Assembly: GCA_001782045.1 (NCBI GenBank)
Contig: MFNK01000002.1
Coordinates: forward strand, 1 to 48,228
DNA length: 48,228 bases
Direction of reading: 5' to 3'
From: Candidatus Levybacteria bacterium RIFCSPHIGHO2_01_FULL_36_15b
Lineage (GTDB): Bacteria > Patescibacteriota > Microgenomatia > Levybacterales > UBA12049
The notes under the pieces were generated by a model. It searched no databases. It saw only the letters and a program-made list of their open reading frames with translations, and was not told the DNA's origin. Below, piece after piece: positions 3,543 through 42,879 of the stretch. The position numbers and the translations under genes were made by a program. Position 1 is the stretch's first letter. The number at the start of each line of letters is the position of its first letter.

Positions 3543-4553
3543 ATGATTGAAAGATTAAATGAAGATTCGAATATTAACTTCTTGGGTAATTCTACTAGTG
3601 CAAGTGGAGTTGAAGTTATTATTCCTAAGATAGCAAGAATTCCAACTACACAGGAAAATCCATGGGAGGAGTCTCCTTTAAAAATTAAAGGCGCTGGAGC
3701 TGGTAGGTTAGAGTTTCATTTACCACATATAGCTGAAGCACTGCAAAAAGCTAGAAACAGATCTATAAAAAATGGTGAGATAACTGCGGGAGAGGATATA
3801 GCAAAAAATATTCAGGATTTGCTTAAACTGAAACCAGGTCAAGTGCTTGTTGATCTTGGAATGGGACCAGGAATTATAGCCAAACATATAAGTAAATACC
3901 TAGATGAAACTGGCTGGCTTTATTGCGTCGATGCTTCCCCGTCAATGCTGAAAGCTGCTCAAAAAGAACTACTTGGAAACAATGCAACTCTAATTCATGG
4001 AGATATTCATACGGTAGATAACCTAATTCACGAAAAAGCGGACGCCGCAATTTTATCCGGAAACGTACATCTTTTAACAAATAGGGAGTTAGCATTCAAA
4101 GCTATTTACAATATGCTAAAGCCTGATGGCAAATTGGTTGTAGTTACTCATGTTAACAGAAATGCCAAGAAGGAGACTACAAAATTTGCTTCTGAGATAG
4201 ACAAACTTGAGCAAACAAGACCAGATTTAAAAGTAGGTGGATTAAGGCTCCCGATGCTAACTGAAAAAGAATTAAAAGAAGAGGTCGTTCATAAGTTAGC
4301 AAAAGTAGGGTTTACGGTATTAGAAATAGATGCTGAAACTAACGCTCCGGACGTCAATGAGGTTTTAGGGCAAGGAAACATGCCATTACACGGTGTTGGA
4401 AAAAGATTAGCAATTATAGATGGAAGGGTGAATGAAACAAGAAGGGAAGAGATGGCAAAAGATATACTCACCTCGTTATACGAGGGGACTCAGATGCAAA
4501 CGTATTTATTATGTACAAAAAAACCCGCAAGCCTTCTTCCCAAACAAAAATAA
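3543..4553 (+). CDS. Class I SAM-dependent methyltransferase
   Basis: Motif I VLVDLGMGPG, motif II CVDASPSML, GDI motif, LKPDGKLVV. Confidence 0.85.
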   Translation: MIERLNEDSNINFLGNSTSASGVEVIIPKIARIPTTQENPWEESPLKIKGAGAGRLEFHLPHIAEALQKARNRSIKNGEITAGEDIAKNIQDLLKLKPGQVLVDLGMGPGIIAKHISKYLDETGWLYCVDASPSMLKAAQKELLGNNATLIHGDIHTVDNLIHEKADAAILSGNVHLLTNRELAFKAIYNMLKPDGKLVVVTHVNRNAKKETTKFASEIDKLEQTRPDLKVGGLRLPMLTEKELKEEVVHKLAKVGFTVLEIDAETNAPDVNEVLGQGNMPLHGVGKRLAIIDGRVNETRREEMAKDILTSLYEGTQMQTYLLCTKKPASLLPKQK

Positions 4554-38782: not shown

Positions 38783-39264
38783 TACAATACCTCAATTTTA
38801 CCTACATCCATTAACCAACCTGCGTATTGTGCTTTTTGGGTTTGTCCCCAAACTTTTATTTTTTTACCTACAAATTGAGATAAATCAACAATCGATGAAG
38901 TTAAATAGACATTTTGACTTTCCCCACCCGAACGCTCTAAATGAAATGCCCCCTCATCTTCTATTCCACCTTCTTTTAGTACGCCTTCTACAGTATCTTT
39001 GAAGGTTTTAATATCATTTGAACCAACTATTGTTCCGGAGTCTGCCTGATTCTCTTTATTTGAAGTAGATGTATTTACCGATGTATTTATACCCTTTCCG
39101 GAAAGCATATATCCGCTAATTACGCCTAAAACAACAATTAAGCCTAGTAATGCAATTATTTTTGGAGTGAATGTTTTGCCTTGACCAAAGCTATGAATTA
39201 GGGGTTTACTAGTGGAACCAGAAATATTTTCTTGAGAATTTTGTTGTGTATTATTTTCTTCCAT
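38782..39264 (-). CDS. Membrane-anchored hypothetical protein with a small beta-barrel-like C-terminus
   Basis: One TM helix. YLTSSIVDLSQFVGKKIKVWG pattern. Confidence 0.7.
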   Translation of the reverse strand: MEENNTQQNSQENISGSTSKPLIHSFGQGKTFTPKIIALLGLIVVLGVISGYMLSGKGINTSVNTSTSNKENQADSGTIVGSNDIKTFKDTVEGVLKEGGIEDEGAFHLERSGGESQNVYLTSSIVDLSQFVGKKIKVWGQTQKAQYAGWLMDVGKIEVL

Positions 39265-39273
39265 CTATATTCA

Positions 39274-40311
39274 TCACCCATATCTAGTTAAGCACAAATT
39301 CCAACTTTTGGCAACTTTTAATCTTGTCTTCAATTTGTAACTATTAGCATGTGATAAATATCCAAGATAAGACTGGATACTCTGATTTAAAGAATAGTTA
39401 GAAATTTTTCCTTTTTTGTGCCCTTCAATTTTTTCGTTTACTTTTCTAAACAATCTTTTCTTAGTTTTGGTTCTTGGCAGAATATAGTTAGGCAAAATAA
39501 TATATCCCAGAAAATCTATTCCCCATGAAAGCTTTCTTAAGATAACTTTATCCGGATGTAGTTCAAGATTAAGTTTATCTTTTATAAATTTGCCAAGTAT
39601 ACATGTATACTTAGGTAGATGATTTTTGTTTGAAGATAAGATTACAAAATCATCTGCATATCGGATATAATATTTGATTTTTAATGTATGTTTTATAAAT
39701 TGATCTAATTCATCTAGGTAAATATTTGCAAAAATCTGGCTTGTTAAATTTCCAAGAGGAATTCCTTTTTCTAAACCTTGTTCTGAAGCAAAACTATTAA
39801 TGACGTCCTTCAATAACATCAGAATATTTTCATCGTCTATTTTCTTTTTTAGAAACTGGACTACTATTGCATGGTTTACGCTTGCAAAAAACTTTTTAAT
39901 ATCAAATTTTAGAGCAAAACAGTCTCTTGAATAATTTTTCGAGACAATCCTGGTAAATTTATAAAGCCTTTTAACTCCTTTATGTGTTCCTTTGTTTAAT
40001 CGGCAGGAATATGAATCATAAATAAAGGATTTATCGAAAATGTCGTAAAGGAATTTGTATAAGAGATGGTGAAGAATTCTATCTGCAACACTTGCTTTAT
40101 GGATATGCCGTCTTTTCGGATCGTTAACGAAAAAGTCCTCGTAGTCTCCGTGTCTATAAGTCTTGTGTTTCAATTTATGCTGAAGAGAAAATAGGTTATC
40201 TTCGAGGTTACGCTCGAAAATTTGAAGATCAAGTCTTTTCTTCTTTCCTCTCCTAAATTCAGCGTAGGCTTGAAAAAGATTTTCTATTGTTATAAGCTGT
40301 TGATAATTCAT
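39274..40311 (-). CDS. DGR reverse transcriptase
   Basis: PKRRHI..ADRILHH, FDIKKFF, GIPLGNLTSQIFANIYL (DGR-type LGxxxSQ), YIRYADDF, GIDFLGY. No maturase, endonuclease or RNase H domain. Start ATG 40311 (the MCVCVCV extension is the TG repeat read through). Confidence 0.95.
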   Translation of the reverse strand: MNYQQLITIENLFQAYAEFRRGKKKRLDLQIFERNLEDNLFSLQHKLKHKTYRHGDYEDFFVNDPKRRHIHKASVADRILHHLLYKFLYDIFDKSFIYDSYSCRLNKGTHKGVKRLYKFTRIVSKNYSRDCFALKFDIKKFFASVNHAIVVQFLKKKIDDENILMLLKDVINSFASEQGLEKGIPLGNLTSQIFANIYLDELDQFIKHTLKIKYYIRYADDFVILSSNKNHLPKYTCILGKFIKDKLNLELHPDKVILRKLSWGIDFLGYIILPNYILPRTKTKKRLFRKVNEKIEGHKKGKISNYSLNQSIQSYLGYLSHANSYKLKTRLKVAKSWNLCLTRYG

Positions 40312-40749
40312 ATGAGTAACAACAATAAATCTGTTCACACACACACACACACACACACCGATAGTAATTTAGCCCGCCCGCAAACGTCTGAGCGTAGCGA
40401 TGGCGCGCAGGATATTCCGATTTTTACCAAAACTTACGAGTTTTATAGACAGTTAACTGCTATAATTCCCTCTTTTCCTAAAACTAAAAGATATACTCTT
40501 GGACAAAGGCTCGATAATATAACTCTAGATATTTTCGAGCTCTTATTTTCTATTCCTGCAAGCTCAAATAAACTCCTAGTTTTGCAAAAATTTAGTGTTA
40601 AACTCGATCTCTTAAAAGTTTTGATACGACTCTCTAAGGATTCTCAAGTGCTAAGCAATAATAATTACTTAAAACTTCAGGAAATATTACAGGAAATTGG
40701 CAAAATGCTTGGAGGATGGATAAAAGCCTCCAAGCAAGCCTCGCCATAA
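40312..40749 (+). CDS. avd: DGR accessory variability determinant Avd (four-helix bundle)
   Basis: IPIFTKTYE, FPKTKRYTLGQRL, LDLLKVLIRL, EIGKMLGGWIK are Avd-family motifs. Adjacent to RT and TR. Start moved to ATG 40312. Confidence 0.88.
   Translation: MSNNNKSVHTHTHTHTDSNLARPQTSERSDGAQDIPIFTKTYEFYRQLTAIIPSFPKTKRYTLGQRLDNITLDIFELLFSIPASSNKLLVLQKFSVKLDLLKVLIRLSKDSQVLSNNNYLKLQEILQEIGKMLGGWIKASKQASP
40336..40358. repeat. Dinucleotide microsatellite (CA)11C
   Basis: CACACACACACACACACACACAC counted directly. Encodes HTHTHTHT in Avd. Confidence 0.97.
40372..40408. repeat. GC-rich imperfect inverted repeat (REP-like) in the avd 5' region
   Basis: Arms GCCCGCC / GGCGCGC (6 of 7 pair). 27 of 37 bases are G/C. 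Confidence 0.55.
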
Positions 40750-40763
40750 ATTTATTACCAGAT

Positions 40764-40880
40764 ACTATCAGAGGAGAAGCCCAAACATTGTCATTGCCAT
40801 TATCACGATTCCAGTTGTTGACGTTAAGGCCATTATCGGGATTGAAGTTGCCGACATTGGCAACATTGGACTCAACTTTT
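40764..40880 (-). ncRNA. DGR template repeat (TR)
   Basis: 117 bp with 103/117 identity to 41190-41306. All 14 differences are at TR adenines (minus strand). Rich in AAY codons (12 Asn). Confidence 0.95.
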
Positions 40881-41167
40881 ATACATCTCTCCGTTTTAAG
40901 AAAACTCACCAAAGATTCTATTACAGTTTCTTTTGTATTTTATCCGCCCCAAGTATTGCCGAAGGGCAAAGAAAGATATACGTAGTGTCTAGTAAATTTT
41001 CATTAAGCACTCTCCTCACCAAAAAAAGTAAAGACTCTGACTTTAAAAATTCTAGAGATAAACGAGGAATAAAACTTGTTTAAGCCTACACTGCTTATCT
41101 TAATTGAGGTTACCAAAAATTTGGACGGATTCCAAGAGACAAAAAAAACAAAAATCCAAGAATCCAA

Positions 41168-41851
41168 TTACTTAGTTCCAGATGTTGGCACTACCAGAGG
41201 AGAAGCCCAAACATCGCCATGGCCATGAGCACGATGCCAGTAGTTGACGCTAAGGCCATTATCGGGATTGAAGTCGCCGACAGTGGCAACATGGGACCCA
41301 ACTGTTGGAGTCTGAGTTCTTGTGTAATTGTAGTCGTATTTTTCTCCAAATAATTCATTGTTTTGAAAAGCTAGCTCTATGTAGTCTGCTGCTTCTCCGA
41401 GTATAGCTTTTACCCCTGATATTCTTTGGGAAAGAGCTTTATTTTGTTCTTCTACCATTTCAAGCTGCTTGTCTAAGGTTTTATTGTTGGAGTCAGGAAT
41501 GAAGAACTCATCGGGGTCAGTCTTTATTGCAACTTGTCCGACTCTAGACTGCAGGGTTTCGAATTGGGGATTTTGCTCATGCCAGGTTGACCAAAATTTA
41601 AAACCTTTAGCTTTAAGAGTTGCTATTGATTCTCCAGTTAGAGTATATATTTGATATCCTTCTTCTTCGAGTAATCTTGTCTGTTCTGAAGTGAATGTAC
41701 CTTCCTCCCTTGTTTCGGGTGCTTGAAGCTCTACATCTTCAGCAAGAAGCTCTTCTGCAGCCTTATGCGTTGGTTTACCACGCACATTATACGGATCTTG
41801 ATCTACCCACTCATCTGGCCTTTGAAAATCATCTTTTTTTGGTTCAGGCAT
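41168..41851 (-). CDS. DGR target protein with C-terminal variable region (CLec-fold-like)
   Basis: 227 aa. The C-terminus TVGSHVATVGDFNPDNGLSVNYWHRAHGHGDVWASPLVV is the diversified copy of TR. No signal peptide or TM helix seen. Confidence 0.92.
   Translation of the reverse strand: MPEPKKDDFQRPDEWVDQDPYNVRGKPTHKAAEELLAEDVELQAPETREEGTFTSEQTRLLEEEGYQIYTLTGESIATLKAKGFKFWSTWHEQNPQFETLQSRVGQVAIKTDPDEFFIPDSNNKTLDKQLEMVEEQNKALSQRISGVKAILGEAADYIELAFQNNELFGEKYDYNYTRTQTPTVGSHVATVGDFNPDNGLSVNYWHRAHGHGDVWASPLVVPTSGTK
41190..41306 (-). repeat. DGR variable repeat (VR)
   Basis: Ungapped alignment to TR at offset 426. Substitutions: A>G x6, A>C x7, A>T x1. Confidence 0.95.
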
Positions 41852-41857
41852 AAGAGT

Positions 41858-41866
41858 ATTATAACA
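41858..41866 (-). promoter_or_regulatory. Extended -10 promoter TGTTATAAT of the DGR target (leaderless)
   Basis: Consensus TGnTATAAT ending 6 nt before ATG 41851. Confidence 0.65.
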
Positions 41867-41874
41867 AAAATGAA

Positions 41875-42879
41875 CTATAGCTTCCTTAAGGCCTCGTCAA
41901 TGAAGACATCTATCTCACCGTTGAGTACTGCTTCAGTGTTAGATGTTTCATATCCAGTTCTTAAGTCCTTCACCATTTTATAAGGATGCAGCACATAAGA
42001 GCGAATTTGGTTTCCCCAACCCGGTGTTTTATAAACGCCTTTTGCGGCTACCTCTTCTTTTTTTCTTTCTTCTTCTTGCATTAACCAAAGCTTGCCTCTA
42101 AGTAAATTTAGAGCATACTCCCTATTTTTACCTTGATATCTTTCGCTATGAGCAGTAACTATTATACCTGTAGGTTTGTGCTTTAGCCTTACAGCAGTTG
42201 AAACTTTATTTACGTTTTGTCCGCCATGTCCTCCGCTTCTGAAAAAATCCCAGTCTAAATCTTCTTCCTTAATCTCAACACTTCCGTTCTTTGCTAAATT
42301 AGGCAAAACCTCAACAAGCGCAAAAGATGTTTGTCTTAATTTATCTGCATTAAAAGGCGACTGCCTTACTAATCTGTGCACCCCCGCTTCGTGTTTTAAA
42401 AACCCATATGCAAATTCTGCCTCAACCGTTATGGTTATGCTTTTCATGCCAGCTTCATCACCAGGAGTCTCATCGATGGTTTCAAACTTCCAGCCTTTTT
42501 TCTCAAAAAATCTGCTATACATTCTAAATAACATTTGGGTCCAATCCATTGCTTCTACGCCTCCTTGTCCTGCGTGAAGAGACATAATTGCTCCATCTTT
42601 ATCAAAGGGATGCGAAAAATATAAATAAGTCTCAAGTTTTTCAACTAAATTTTCTAAGCCATTAGTGTCACTGCCATCTATTTTTTCGGAAAGTAACTGA
42701 AGATCTGTTATTTCTTCCTGAATTTTTGCCAACTCTTTCATCTTGGAAGTTGCCTCTTGTGGATTTTTCCAGAAATTTGGTTCTGAAGATAACGCCTCTA
42801 ATTGAAAGGCTGTAAGTCTTTTTTCTTCCAAGTTTGCTTTTTCTAAAATTTTTTTAGCTCGCTTCTGTAAGTTTTCCAT
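41875..42879 (-). CDS. prfB: Peptide chain release factor 2 (continuous frame)
   Basis: HAGQGG.EA.DW..ML.RMY, SPF anticodon mimic (RQSPF), GGQ (GGHGGQNVN), WGNQIRSYV. Confidence 0.95.

Follow-up and report, generated by a model that had tools for sequence, protein, structure and literature searches.

The subject of this study is a diversity-generating retroelement (DGR) in a stretch of 48,228 nucleotides from contig MFNK01000002.1 of Candidatus Levybacteria bacterium RIFCSPHIGHO2_01_FULL_36_15b, referred to here as the window, and in particular a dinucleotide repeat near the start of its avd gene whose variable length suggests a switch of the element. The DGR comprises a target gene that ends in a variable repeat (VR), a template repeat (TR), a gene encoding the reverse transcriptase (RT) and avd, which are arranged as follows:

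39274 to 40311, minus strand: RT, the DGR reverse transcriptase, 345 amino acids from its ATG (Pfam RVT_1, 1.4e-21)
40309 to 40314: abutting starts of RT and avd, CAT at 40309-40311 and ATG at 40312-40314
40312 to 40749, plus strand, opposite to the rest of the DGR: avd, 145 amino acids (Pfam bAvd, PF22296, 2.3e-19)
40315 to 40410, plus strand: N-terminal extension of avd, about 32 codons, containing a simple sequence repeat (SSR) and a GC-rich 33-mer (40372-40405)
40336 to 40357: the SSR, a (CA)11/(TG)11 microsatellite, avd codons 9-16 and, on the minus strand, 25-46 nt upstream of the RT ATG
40764 to 40880, minus strand: TR, 117 nt, read from 40880 to 40764
41190 to 41306, minus strand: VR, 117 nt, read from 41306 to 41190
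41168 to 41851, minus strand: DGR target gene, 227 amino acids, with the VR at its 3' end (C-terminus)

An active retroelement of known architecture

This anatomy, with the target, VR, TR and RT on the minus strand and avd between TR and RT on the opposite strand, had been described in an earlier note made from the sequence alone and is borne out by the open reading frames (ORFs), the Pfam matches and the alignment of the two repeats. RT carries the motif GIPLGNLTSQ, whose LGNLTSQ part we take to be typical of DGR RTs, and it shares 31-61% identity with RTs adjoining TR/VR pairs at 27 loci. Its ORF remains open upstream of the ATG as far as a GTG at 40356, inside the repeat. In Avd, the bAvd match covers residues 39-139 only, and an alignment with 26 relatives shows conservation of the C-terminal motif IGKMLGGW. 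TR and VR align without gaps over their 117 nt and all of their mismatches (14/14) fall on TR adenines of the minus strand, of which there are 34. At the 3' ends of VR and TR, a candidate region for initiation of mutagenic homing (IMH/IMH*) is the GC-richer block GGGCTTCTCCTCTG, which is identical in both; the homology beyond it is weaker and imperfect, is interrupted by a gap of 6 nt and runs on to about 40744. The target protein has no Pfam match; in DGR targets the VR usually resides in a C-type lectin fold.

An identical RT protein is encoded by eight contigs, and four other independent assemblies (L071-L074: ENA ERZ4903055; NCBI GCA_001782415.1, contig MFON01000001.1; ENA ERZ27254752; JGI 3300025317) share the gene order and orientation of the window. 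Over the 2,578-bp cassette, each of the four carries 14-16 substitutions relative to the window, every one in the VR, and the differences outside the VR consist of one single-nucleotide polymorphism (40325, in L071) and the length of one repeat. In contigs of the metagenome runs X1-X4 (groundwater/soil) we found 26 variable positions, all of them (26/26) opposite TR adenines. Diversification of the VR is ongoing in nature and adenine-directed, and together with the identities of the genes and the restriction of TR/VR differences to adenines, this ongoing change makes the locus an active DGR. Joints within contigs (e.g. 40366 to 40693, found in all four runs) were considered as deletions and dismissed, as their shorter side measures merely 20-34 nt; given the many contigs of 90-95% identity alongside, we read them as pieces of other DGRs of the community.

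The core order TR-(avd)-RT with a reverse-strand avd places the locus in architecture B3, which, according to the main text of the study that defined it, accounts for 90% of DGRs in the Candidate Phyla Radiation (CPR) and is nearly absent elsewhere (Wu et al. 2018, Nucleic Acids Res 46:11, PMC5758913). As far as B3 is described there, order and strands are the same, the target with its VR lies upstream, and we see no difference in layout.

A tract of variable length sets the reading frame of avd

The (CA)11 tract, which the earlier note had overlooked although it lies in the very interval that it described, is located between the ATG of avd and the Avd core, within the N-terminal extension. 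It is the sole dinucleotide repeat of at least five units in the 48-kb window, where runs of eight or more G or C do not occur. The extension of about 32 codons is absent in most relatives, whose ATG is found 2-5 codons before the Avd core. Upstream of the core, no canonical start other than the ATG at 40312 is in frame, and there is no ATG, GTG or TTG between tract and core. Among contigs and assemblies of the same organism, the following tract lengths were encountered:

n = 8, L071: avd in frame; avd called, 143 amino acids
n = 9, a 377-nt contig of run X4 with 0 mismatches: avd out of frame
n = 10, L072, L073 and L074: avd out of frame; gene callers found none
n = 11, the window: avd in frame, 145 amino acids
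n = 9, 10 and 12, minor contigs of runs X1-X3: avd out of frame; the unitig graph breaks exactly at the tract

The flanks of the tract are identical across these lengths. When the sequence was rebuilt with other repeat numbers, only n = 8, 11 and 14 placed the ATG at 40312 in frame with the Avd core, and gene finders called avd solely in the assemblies with n = 8 and n = 11. The length of the tract decides whether the predicted start of avd is in frame with its core. The locus thereby displays three of the properties by which contingency loci are recognized, namely an SSR inside an ORF, variation of its length among otherwise identical genomes and the resulting shifts into and out of frame.

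The GC-rich 33-mer of the same extension recurs with two mismatches in very deep (~50-130x) contigs of 31-32 nt from runs X5-X8, and in longer contigs of these runs with unrelated flanks. It could be some repeated element of the community, perhaps a CRISPR repeat or the end of a mobile element.

Simple sequence repeats in related elements

The relatives considered here were drawn from a survey of 70 loci with related RTs, of which 29 come from GTDB genomes (mostly metagenome-assembled genomes (MAGs) of Patescibacteria/CPR) and 41 from metagenome contigs. The closest of them, L030 and L031 (61% RT identity), contain a (GT)7 tract at the same place as (CA)n, and their avd ATG is one slippage step out of frame. 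Their leader peptides are similar (MSNHFKGS.. and MQTSKGSS..) and include a repeat encoding (HT)n. Further tracts close to the RT start, at distances of up to about 55 nt, are (GA)10 in L001, (GA)20 in L044 (~2946-2985) and runs of G8-G13 in L007, L008, L032, L033, L035, L036 and L064. At six loci of this junction type (L001, L032/L033, L035, L036, L007 and L008), no RT start is found between the tract and the RT core. The RT ATG instead lies beyond the tract, and a single poly-G or GA tract is spanned by some 50-80 nt of antisense overlap between the ORFs of RT and avd. At every one of these loci (6/6; chance 1/3 per locus), the tract lengths that bring RT into frame also do so for avd, a coincidence that is expected only if both ORFs are translated through the tract and have to be ON together.

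A second class of tracts resides about 535-655 nt from the RT ATG, in a variable linker just before the motif G(L/I)P(I/L)GNLTSQ. These mid-RT tracts are runs of G8-G12 in about 20 loci (L002, L004, L011-L020, L023, L024, L034, L037, L049, L050, L053-L056 and L060), (GA)9 in L043 and (GA)19 in L040. The presence of such unlike repeats at one position argues for selection on repetitiveness rather than on the encoded glycines. In 12 of the 16 mid-RT loci that are fully readable, the reading frame differs between the RT half before the tract and the half after it, and would be repaired by one G fewer in nine loci, one G more in two and one more GA unit in L043. TR/VR differences in these loci occur almost exclusively at adenines (for example 12/12 in L011, 16/16 in L016, 20/20 in L019 and 22/22 in L032), and the frame-broken loci thus do not represent decayed elements.

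The repeats are concentrated in the two genes. In 45 non-redundant loci, 27 runs of at least eight G or C are found inside avd and RT (53 kb) against two in the flanks (184 kb), and five dinucleotide tracts inside against two in the flanks (combined binomial p=4e-17). At least one tract is present in 32 of the 45 loci, and SSRs (poly-G, GA, GT) are about 46-fold enriched in avd and RT compared to flanking DNA of the same contigs. The length of these tracts also differs between near-identical pairs (G10 in L032 and G9 in L033; G8 in L037 and G10 in L056), and the mid-RT tract of L012 was assembled as G10 in two runs and as G9 and G8 in a third run of one study.

Several other repeats were noted in the survey. 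In L015, L053 and L054, a T9/A9 run (~3780-3788 / 2780-2788) divides avd itself between two reading frames, in addition to a G9 run in RT. L026, a Candidatus Micrarchaeota MAG, contains a C10 run in RT (4408-4417) that coincides with a change of frame at query residues 126/132, and the habit may extend to DPANN archaea. In L009, like L044 one of the more distant DGRs and with avd on the same strand as RT, an (AG)15 tract is located about 1.6 kb upstream (1985-2014).

A proposed phase-variable switch of targeted hypermutation

Collectively, these properties define a standard B3 DGR whose minus strand carries the target with its VR, a structured RNA, the TR and RT. Its avd, which interrupts this series between TR and RT on the opposite strand, converges on the TR RNA and diverges head-to-head from RT. 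Slipped-strand mispairing at (CA)n would provide a heritable and reversible ON/OFF switch (phase variation) for Avd and, since RT needs Avd, the tract would also switch mutagenic retrohoming. In relatives, tracts of poly-G, GA or GT would have the same effect from one of two positions, the junction of avd and RT, at which a single tract would gate both overlapping ORFs, or a loop of RT. The first codons of RT would contain the promoter of avd, and mRNA leaders would be very short or absent. We consider it likely that the window holds an active B3 DGR with an avd gated by a slipped-strand microsatellite, as one case of contingency tracts that occur clade-wide in avd and RT. The broader proposal, which we favour by a lesser degree, holds that contingency tracts are a built-in part of avd and/or RT in DGRs of the CPR and of at least one DPANN archaeon (L026), so that a second and simpler hypermutable site stochastically switches targeted hypermutation, with a single junction tract co-switching both genes.

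Several points weigh against this interpretation. The ON and OFF states are deduced from reading frames alone, and the tract lengths were obtained from assembled contigs and unitigs instead of raw reads, so that allele frequencies within populations and polymerase chain reaction stutter are not quantifiable. In the window, translation of RT from the ATG at 40311 is not gated, as this ATG is located downstream of the tract on its own strand. Translation of avd could moreover begin at a non-canonical codon after the tract (ATT 40417), which would turn the tract into an element of a leader or promoter, and the excess of mid-RT loci requiring one G fewer (9/16) is equally compatible with programmed slippage during transcription or on the ribosome.

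Such slippage would allow out-of-frame genomes to produce low and steady amounts of Avd and RT, thereby keeping a dangerous enzyme scarce, and it is compatible with a switch at the level of DNA. It would account for the fact that most assemblies are out of frame and yet their VRs bear the signature of adenine mutagenesis, and for the need of nine of the 16 mid-RT tracts for one and the same correction. However, the DNA of different samples and assemblies already contains tracts that are longer or shorter by 1-3 units, all three frame states are found, and with 9-13 G or 7-20 dinucleotide units the tracts by far exceed the slippery sites of ribosomes. We thus regard programmed slippage as an unlikely substitute for a DNA switch.

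Still less probable, in our analysis, is a start of avd after the tract at a non-canonical codon, in which case (CA)n would act as a spacer that tunes the geometry of a promoter region shared by avd and RT or the structure of a leader, in the manner of the hifA/hifB TA repeat of Haemophilus influenzae, and its length would leave the frame unchanged. The short distance between start and core in most relatives, the beginning of the bAvd profile at residue 39 and the location of the tract 25-46 nt upstream of the RT ATG would all agree with this role. It is at odds with the lack of any ATG, GTG or TTG between tract and core and with an ORF that is open from the ATG at 40312 through the tract. L030 and L031 have also retained a similar leader peptide with its (HT)n-encoding repeat, and the in-frame lengths shared by both genes in the six junction-type loci would matter only if the tract is translated. 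Finally, it is very improbable that avd was misassembled or that the tract lengths reflect errors of sequencing and assembly in decaying pseudogenes since, error-prone as homopolymers and microsatellites are and despite the fragmentation of Logan unitigs at the tract, the orientation agrees in five independent assemblies, three of which share n = 10, the flanks are identical to the base, the layout is kept in 32 lineages, the repeats are strongly enriched in the two genes, RT and avd are in frame together in every overlapping locus and the VRs are still diversifying.

Phase variation by SSRs is well established, as in the poly-G tracts of Campylobacter jejuni, Neisseria and Helicobacter or the TA repeats between hifA and hifB of Haemophilus influenzae. 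The tracts described here resemble such contingency loci in being long mono- or dinucleotide repeats of otherwise AT-rich genomes that occupy the 5' part of an ORF or the space separating two divergent genes, and whose length varies among genomes that are otherwise identical and sets the frame. In contrast to known contingency loci, which mostly gate surface structures and restriction-modification systems, they reside in the genes of enzymes for targeted hypermutation, and in several relatives one tract would gate two ORFs that overlap in antisense.

The activity of DGRs is costly and potentially self-damaging and, to our knowledge, almost nothing is known about its regulation in the uncultured lineages where DGRs are most abundant. 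Full-text searches returned no literature linking the control of DGRs to SSRs, although a prior mention is not fully excluded by them. If correct, the proposed switch would explain why many RT genes of CPR DGRs appear frame-shifted in assemblies despite VRs that are plainly diversifying, and why such genes are discarded or called pseudogenes by pipelines for DGR detection. It would also predict a correlation between tract length and turnover of the VR in time series, and would constitute a clear natural case of second-order control of evolvability.

Orientation of avd and spacing of the two starts

The iterated Avd profile located avd in 46 of the 70 surveyed loci, and near-identical loci were subsequently collapsed. 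In 32 of the 37 resulting non-redundant lineages avd is opposite to the RT strand, and the five lineages with avd on the same strand are among those with more distant RTs (<=45% identity). The earlier note had called for this comparison, reasoning that the layout would lose novelty if it were standard in related DGRs, and the survey as well as the published B3 class show that it is. The antisense position of avd, already known for the CPR, adds little by itself, and the repeat inside the interval matters more than the layout.

The abutment of the RT and avd starts, also pointed out in that note, is confirmed in the window. In the 21 lineages where the distance between the two starts could be called, it amounts to 0 nt in eight (including the window), +2 in two, +4 in two, -2 in two, -11 in six and -12 in one. 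Because 8 of 21 have no spacer (besides the window L002, L004, L011, L012, L016, L020 and L056), the zero spacer is, on comparison of these loci, a recurrent trait of the clade and not peculiar to this genome. Searched by terms, the main text of the B3 study (Wu et al. 2018, PMC5758913) returned no mention of abutting or overlapping starts, of repeats in avd or RT or of frame-broken RT genes. Within the window, CATATG occurs at 12 sites, and the one at 40309 is alone in giving rise to long ORFs in both directions (145 and 345 amino acids).

An inversion of avd by misassembly is contradicted by the four other independent assemblies, which share the orientation, and as flanking inverted repeats of a potentially invertible segment we found only short AT-rich pairs with 75-92% complementarity. 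On the basis of these assemblies, the conservation throughout the clade and the lack of credible flanking inverted repeats, both possibilities are excluded. Two palindromes to which attention had been drawn, TCATATGA at the start junction (40308-40315) and ATAAATTTAT at 40746-40755, which contains the avd stop TAA (40747-40749), are present at these coordinates and carry no statistical weight. The former is merely CAT plus ATG with one flanking pair and follows automatically from the abutting starts, and the latter is readily found by chance in a window of 34% GC that holds 85 perfect 10-nt palindromes (1.76 per kb), among which ATAAATTTAT occurs twice.

Structured RNA on both sides of the template repeat

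A conserved RNA structure is found directly 5' of the TR, and a hairpin follows on its 3' side:

40867 to 41043, minus strand: non-coding RNA directly 5' of TR, defined by covariation and by covariance model R1
40970-40961/40898-40889, minus strand: helix P1
40957-40955/40949-40947, minus strand: helix P2
40933-40929/40915-40911, minus strand: helix P3
40946-40934, minus strand: single-stranded AAAUAAAAUACA
40910-40907, minus strand: single-stranded GGUG
40706 to 40736: hairpin formed by 3' codons of avd, 28 nt after the TR end, with perfect arms of 10 bp and an 11-nt loop, extendable to about 18 bp

The upstream structure emerged from an alignment of the 175 nt ending at the TR start in 22 loci. 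It contains three helices with 18 pairs, all of which (18/18) show compensatory changes. Paired cells amount to 88%, compared to 39-50% with slid partners, and the covariation score is 0.84 compared to 0.14-0.26, values that were reached by none of 500 shuffles. The covariance model R1 scores 69.6 bits in the window and also recovers the motif, invariably on the strand of RT, at L024, L038 and L002, which had not contributed to the model. Immediately upstream of the TR, most B3-type loci (L001-L056) show this three-helix RNA with the conserved single-stranded blocks ACUnCUUG, AAAUrAAAUwCA and GGUG.

When scanned at E<=1, the region gives a weak full-length match to the Rfam family RT-16 (RF03019; 41034 to 40876, minus strand) with 30.1 bits against a gathering score of 50. 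RT-16 is one of the motifs RT-1 to RT-19 known from the neighbourhood of reverse transcriptase genes (Weinberg et al. 2017, PMC5737381). The gathering score of any RT-n family was reached by none of 20 relatives, and Rfam at threshold returned only tRNA and rRNA. The 158-nt model of RT-16 and the RNA of the window have in common the strand, the neighbourhood of a DGR RT and the blocks CUAC, UAAAAUACA and GGU. They differ in that the latter scores below the gathering threshold, and the R1 motif rests on its own covariation.

On the other side of the TR, only 14-18 nt separate its end from the avd stop in the window. The gap is too short in the window and in L031, and in both loci the hairpin is built from the last codons of avd; the L031 hairpin shows compensatory changes. 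In both loci it includes a short C-terminal extension of Avd (ASKQASP and STKQTSL, respectively). At least 11 relatives (L005, L011, L013, L017, L020, L032, L034, L036, L043, L050 and L055) contain a strong hairpin (-13 to -24 kcal/mol) that begins 1-14 nt after the TR and ends just before the avd stop. These hairpins, often consisting of an A-run, a GC-stem and a U-run, look like bidirectional terminators, and the hairpin at 40706-40736 is their positional equivalent. A complementarity of 12 nt (11/12) between its loop (40715-40726) and the 5' border of the TR (40876-40887) is not evident in L031 and is probably due to chance.

The features surrounding the TR bear on the model advanced in the earlier note, in which a single long minus-strand RNA would comprise the target, VR, TR, antisense avd and RT, with the antisense of avd serving as the spacer that primes cDNA synthesis and pairing of sense and antisense transcripts regulating the element. 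The window shares with the DGR of BPP-1 (mtd-avd-TR-brt) the combination of RT and Avd, the adenine-specific mutagenesis between TR and VR and the position of the VR at the 3' end of the target. In BPP-1, avd is located on the same strand upstream of the TR, whereas in the window it lies antisense between TR and RT. BPP-1 requires nearly the whole of a structured 144-nt spacer 3' of the TR, with Sp A56 as the priming position for cDNA (Handa et al. 2018, PMC6182149), whereas in the window the conserved RNA stands 5' of the TR. By analogy with BPP-1, the proximity of the avd stop to the TR and the fact that the first structure after the TR is a hairpin of avd codons, with compensatory changes in L031, would speak for a priming role of antisense avd. 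The fold of the minus-strand RNA that had been suggested as a check likewise shows the 454-nt RNA to be more stable than its shuffles (z=-3.1). The junction RNA (40430 to 40300) does not contain any structure (z=+1.05).

Other observations disfavour this model. A stretch of 200 nt starting just before the TR end, covering the antisense of avd, has no conserved base pair in 22 loci. The Rfam motif RT-10, which in BPP-1 is placed between TR and RT (Weinberg et al. 2017, PMC5737381), has no match in the window at E<=1. The terminator-like hairpins of the relatives would end the TR RNA before avd, and the RNA that covaries is found 5' of the TR. A hairpin of avd codons does follow the TR, but support is weak for the contention that antisense avd has to provide the priming spacer, and we view the single long RNA as a doubtful alternative. 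The simplest reading appears to be a compact TR RNA, consisting of the 5' structured element, the TR and the 3' hairpin, which would converge with avd while RT is expressed separately, with the proviso that terminators leak. With its covarying RNA on the 5' side and a terminator-like hairpin on the 3' side, this compact RNA is a candidate DGR RNA for the in vitro reconstitution of a CPR DGR.

Candidate promoters

As no intergenic base separates the two genes, the promoter of avd must lie within the codons of RT, in line with the earlier proposal. The site suggested for it is the following:

40288 to 40296, plus strand: TGTTATAAG, extended -10-like, with TTGAAA 15 nt upstream at 40270-40275

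As an extended -10 element this site is plausible. A consensus scan for promoters and terminators in 39200-42000 did not report it and gave four promoter-like sites compared to 9.1 expected from shuffles, and is thus uninformative for this organism. In relatives, GAAATAAT is conserved 12-19 nt before the avd ATG, which is inconclusive because it is also the antisense of conserved RT codons. The leaders of avd and RT are likely very short or absent.

Upstream of the target gene, TGTTATAAT (41852-41866, minus strand) ends 6 nt before the ATG at 41851, where no Shine-Dalgarno sequence is found, and the arrangement suggests an extended -10 promoter and a leaderless target mRNA. TGTTATAAT and the candidate promoter of avd are the same in eight of nine bases.

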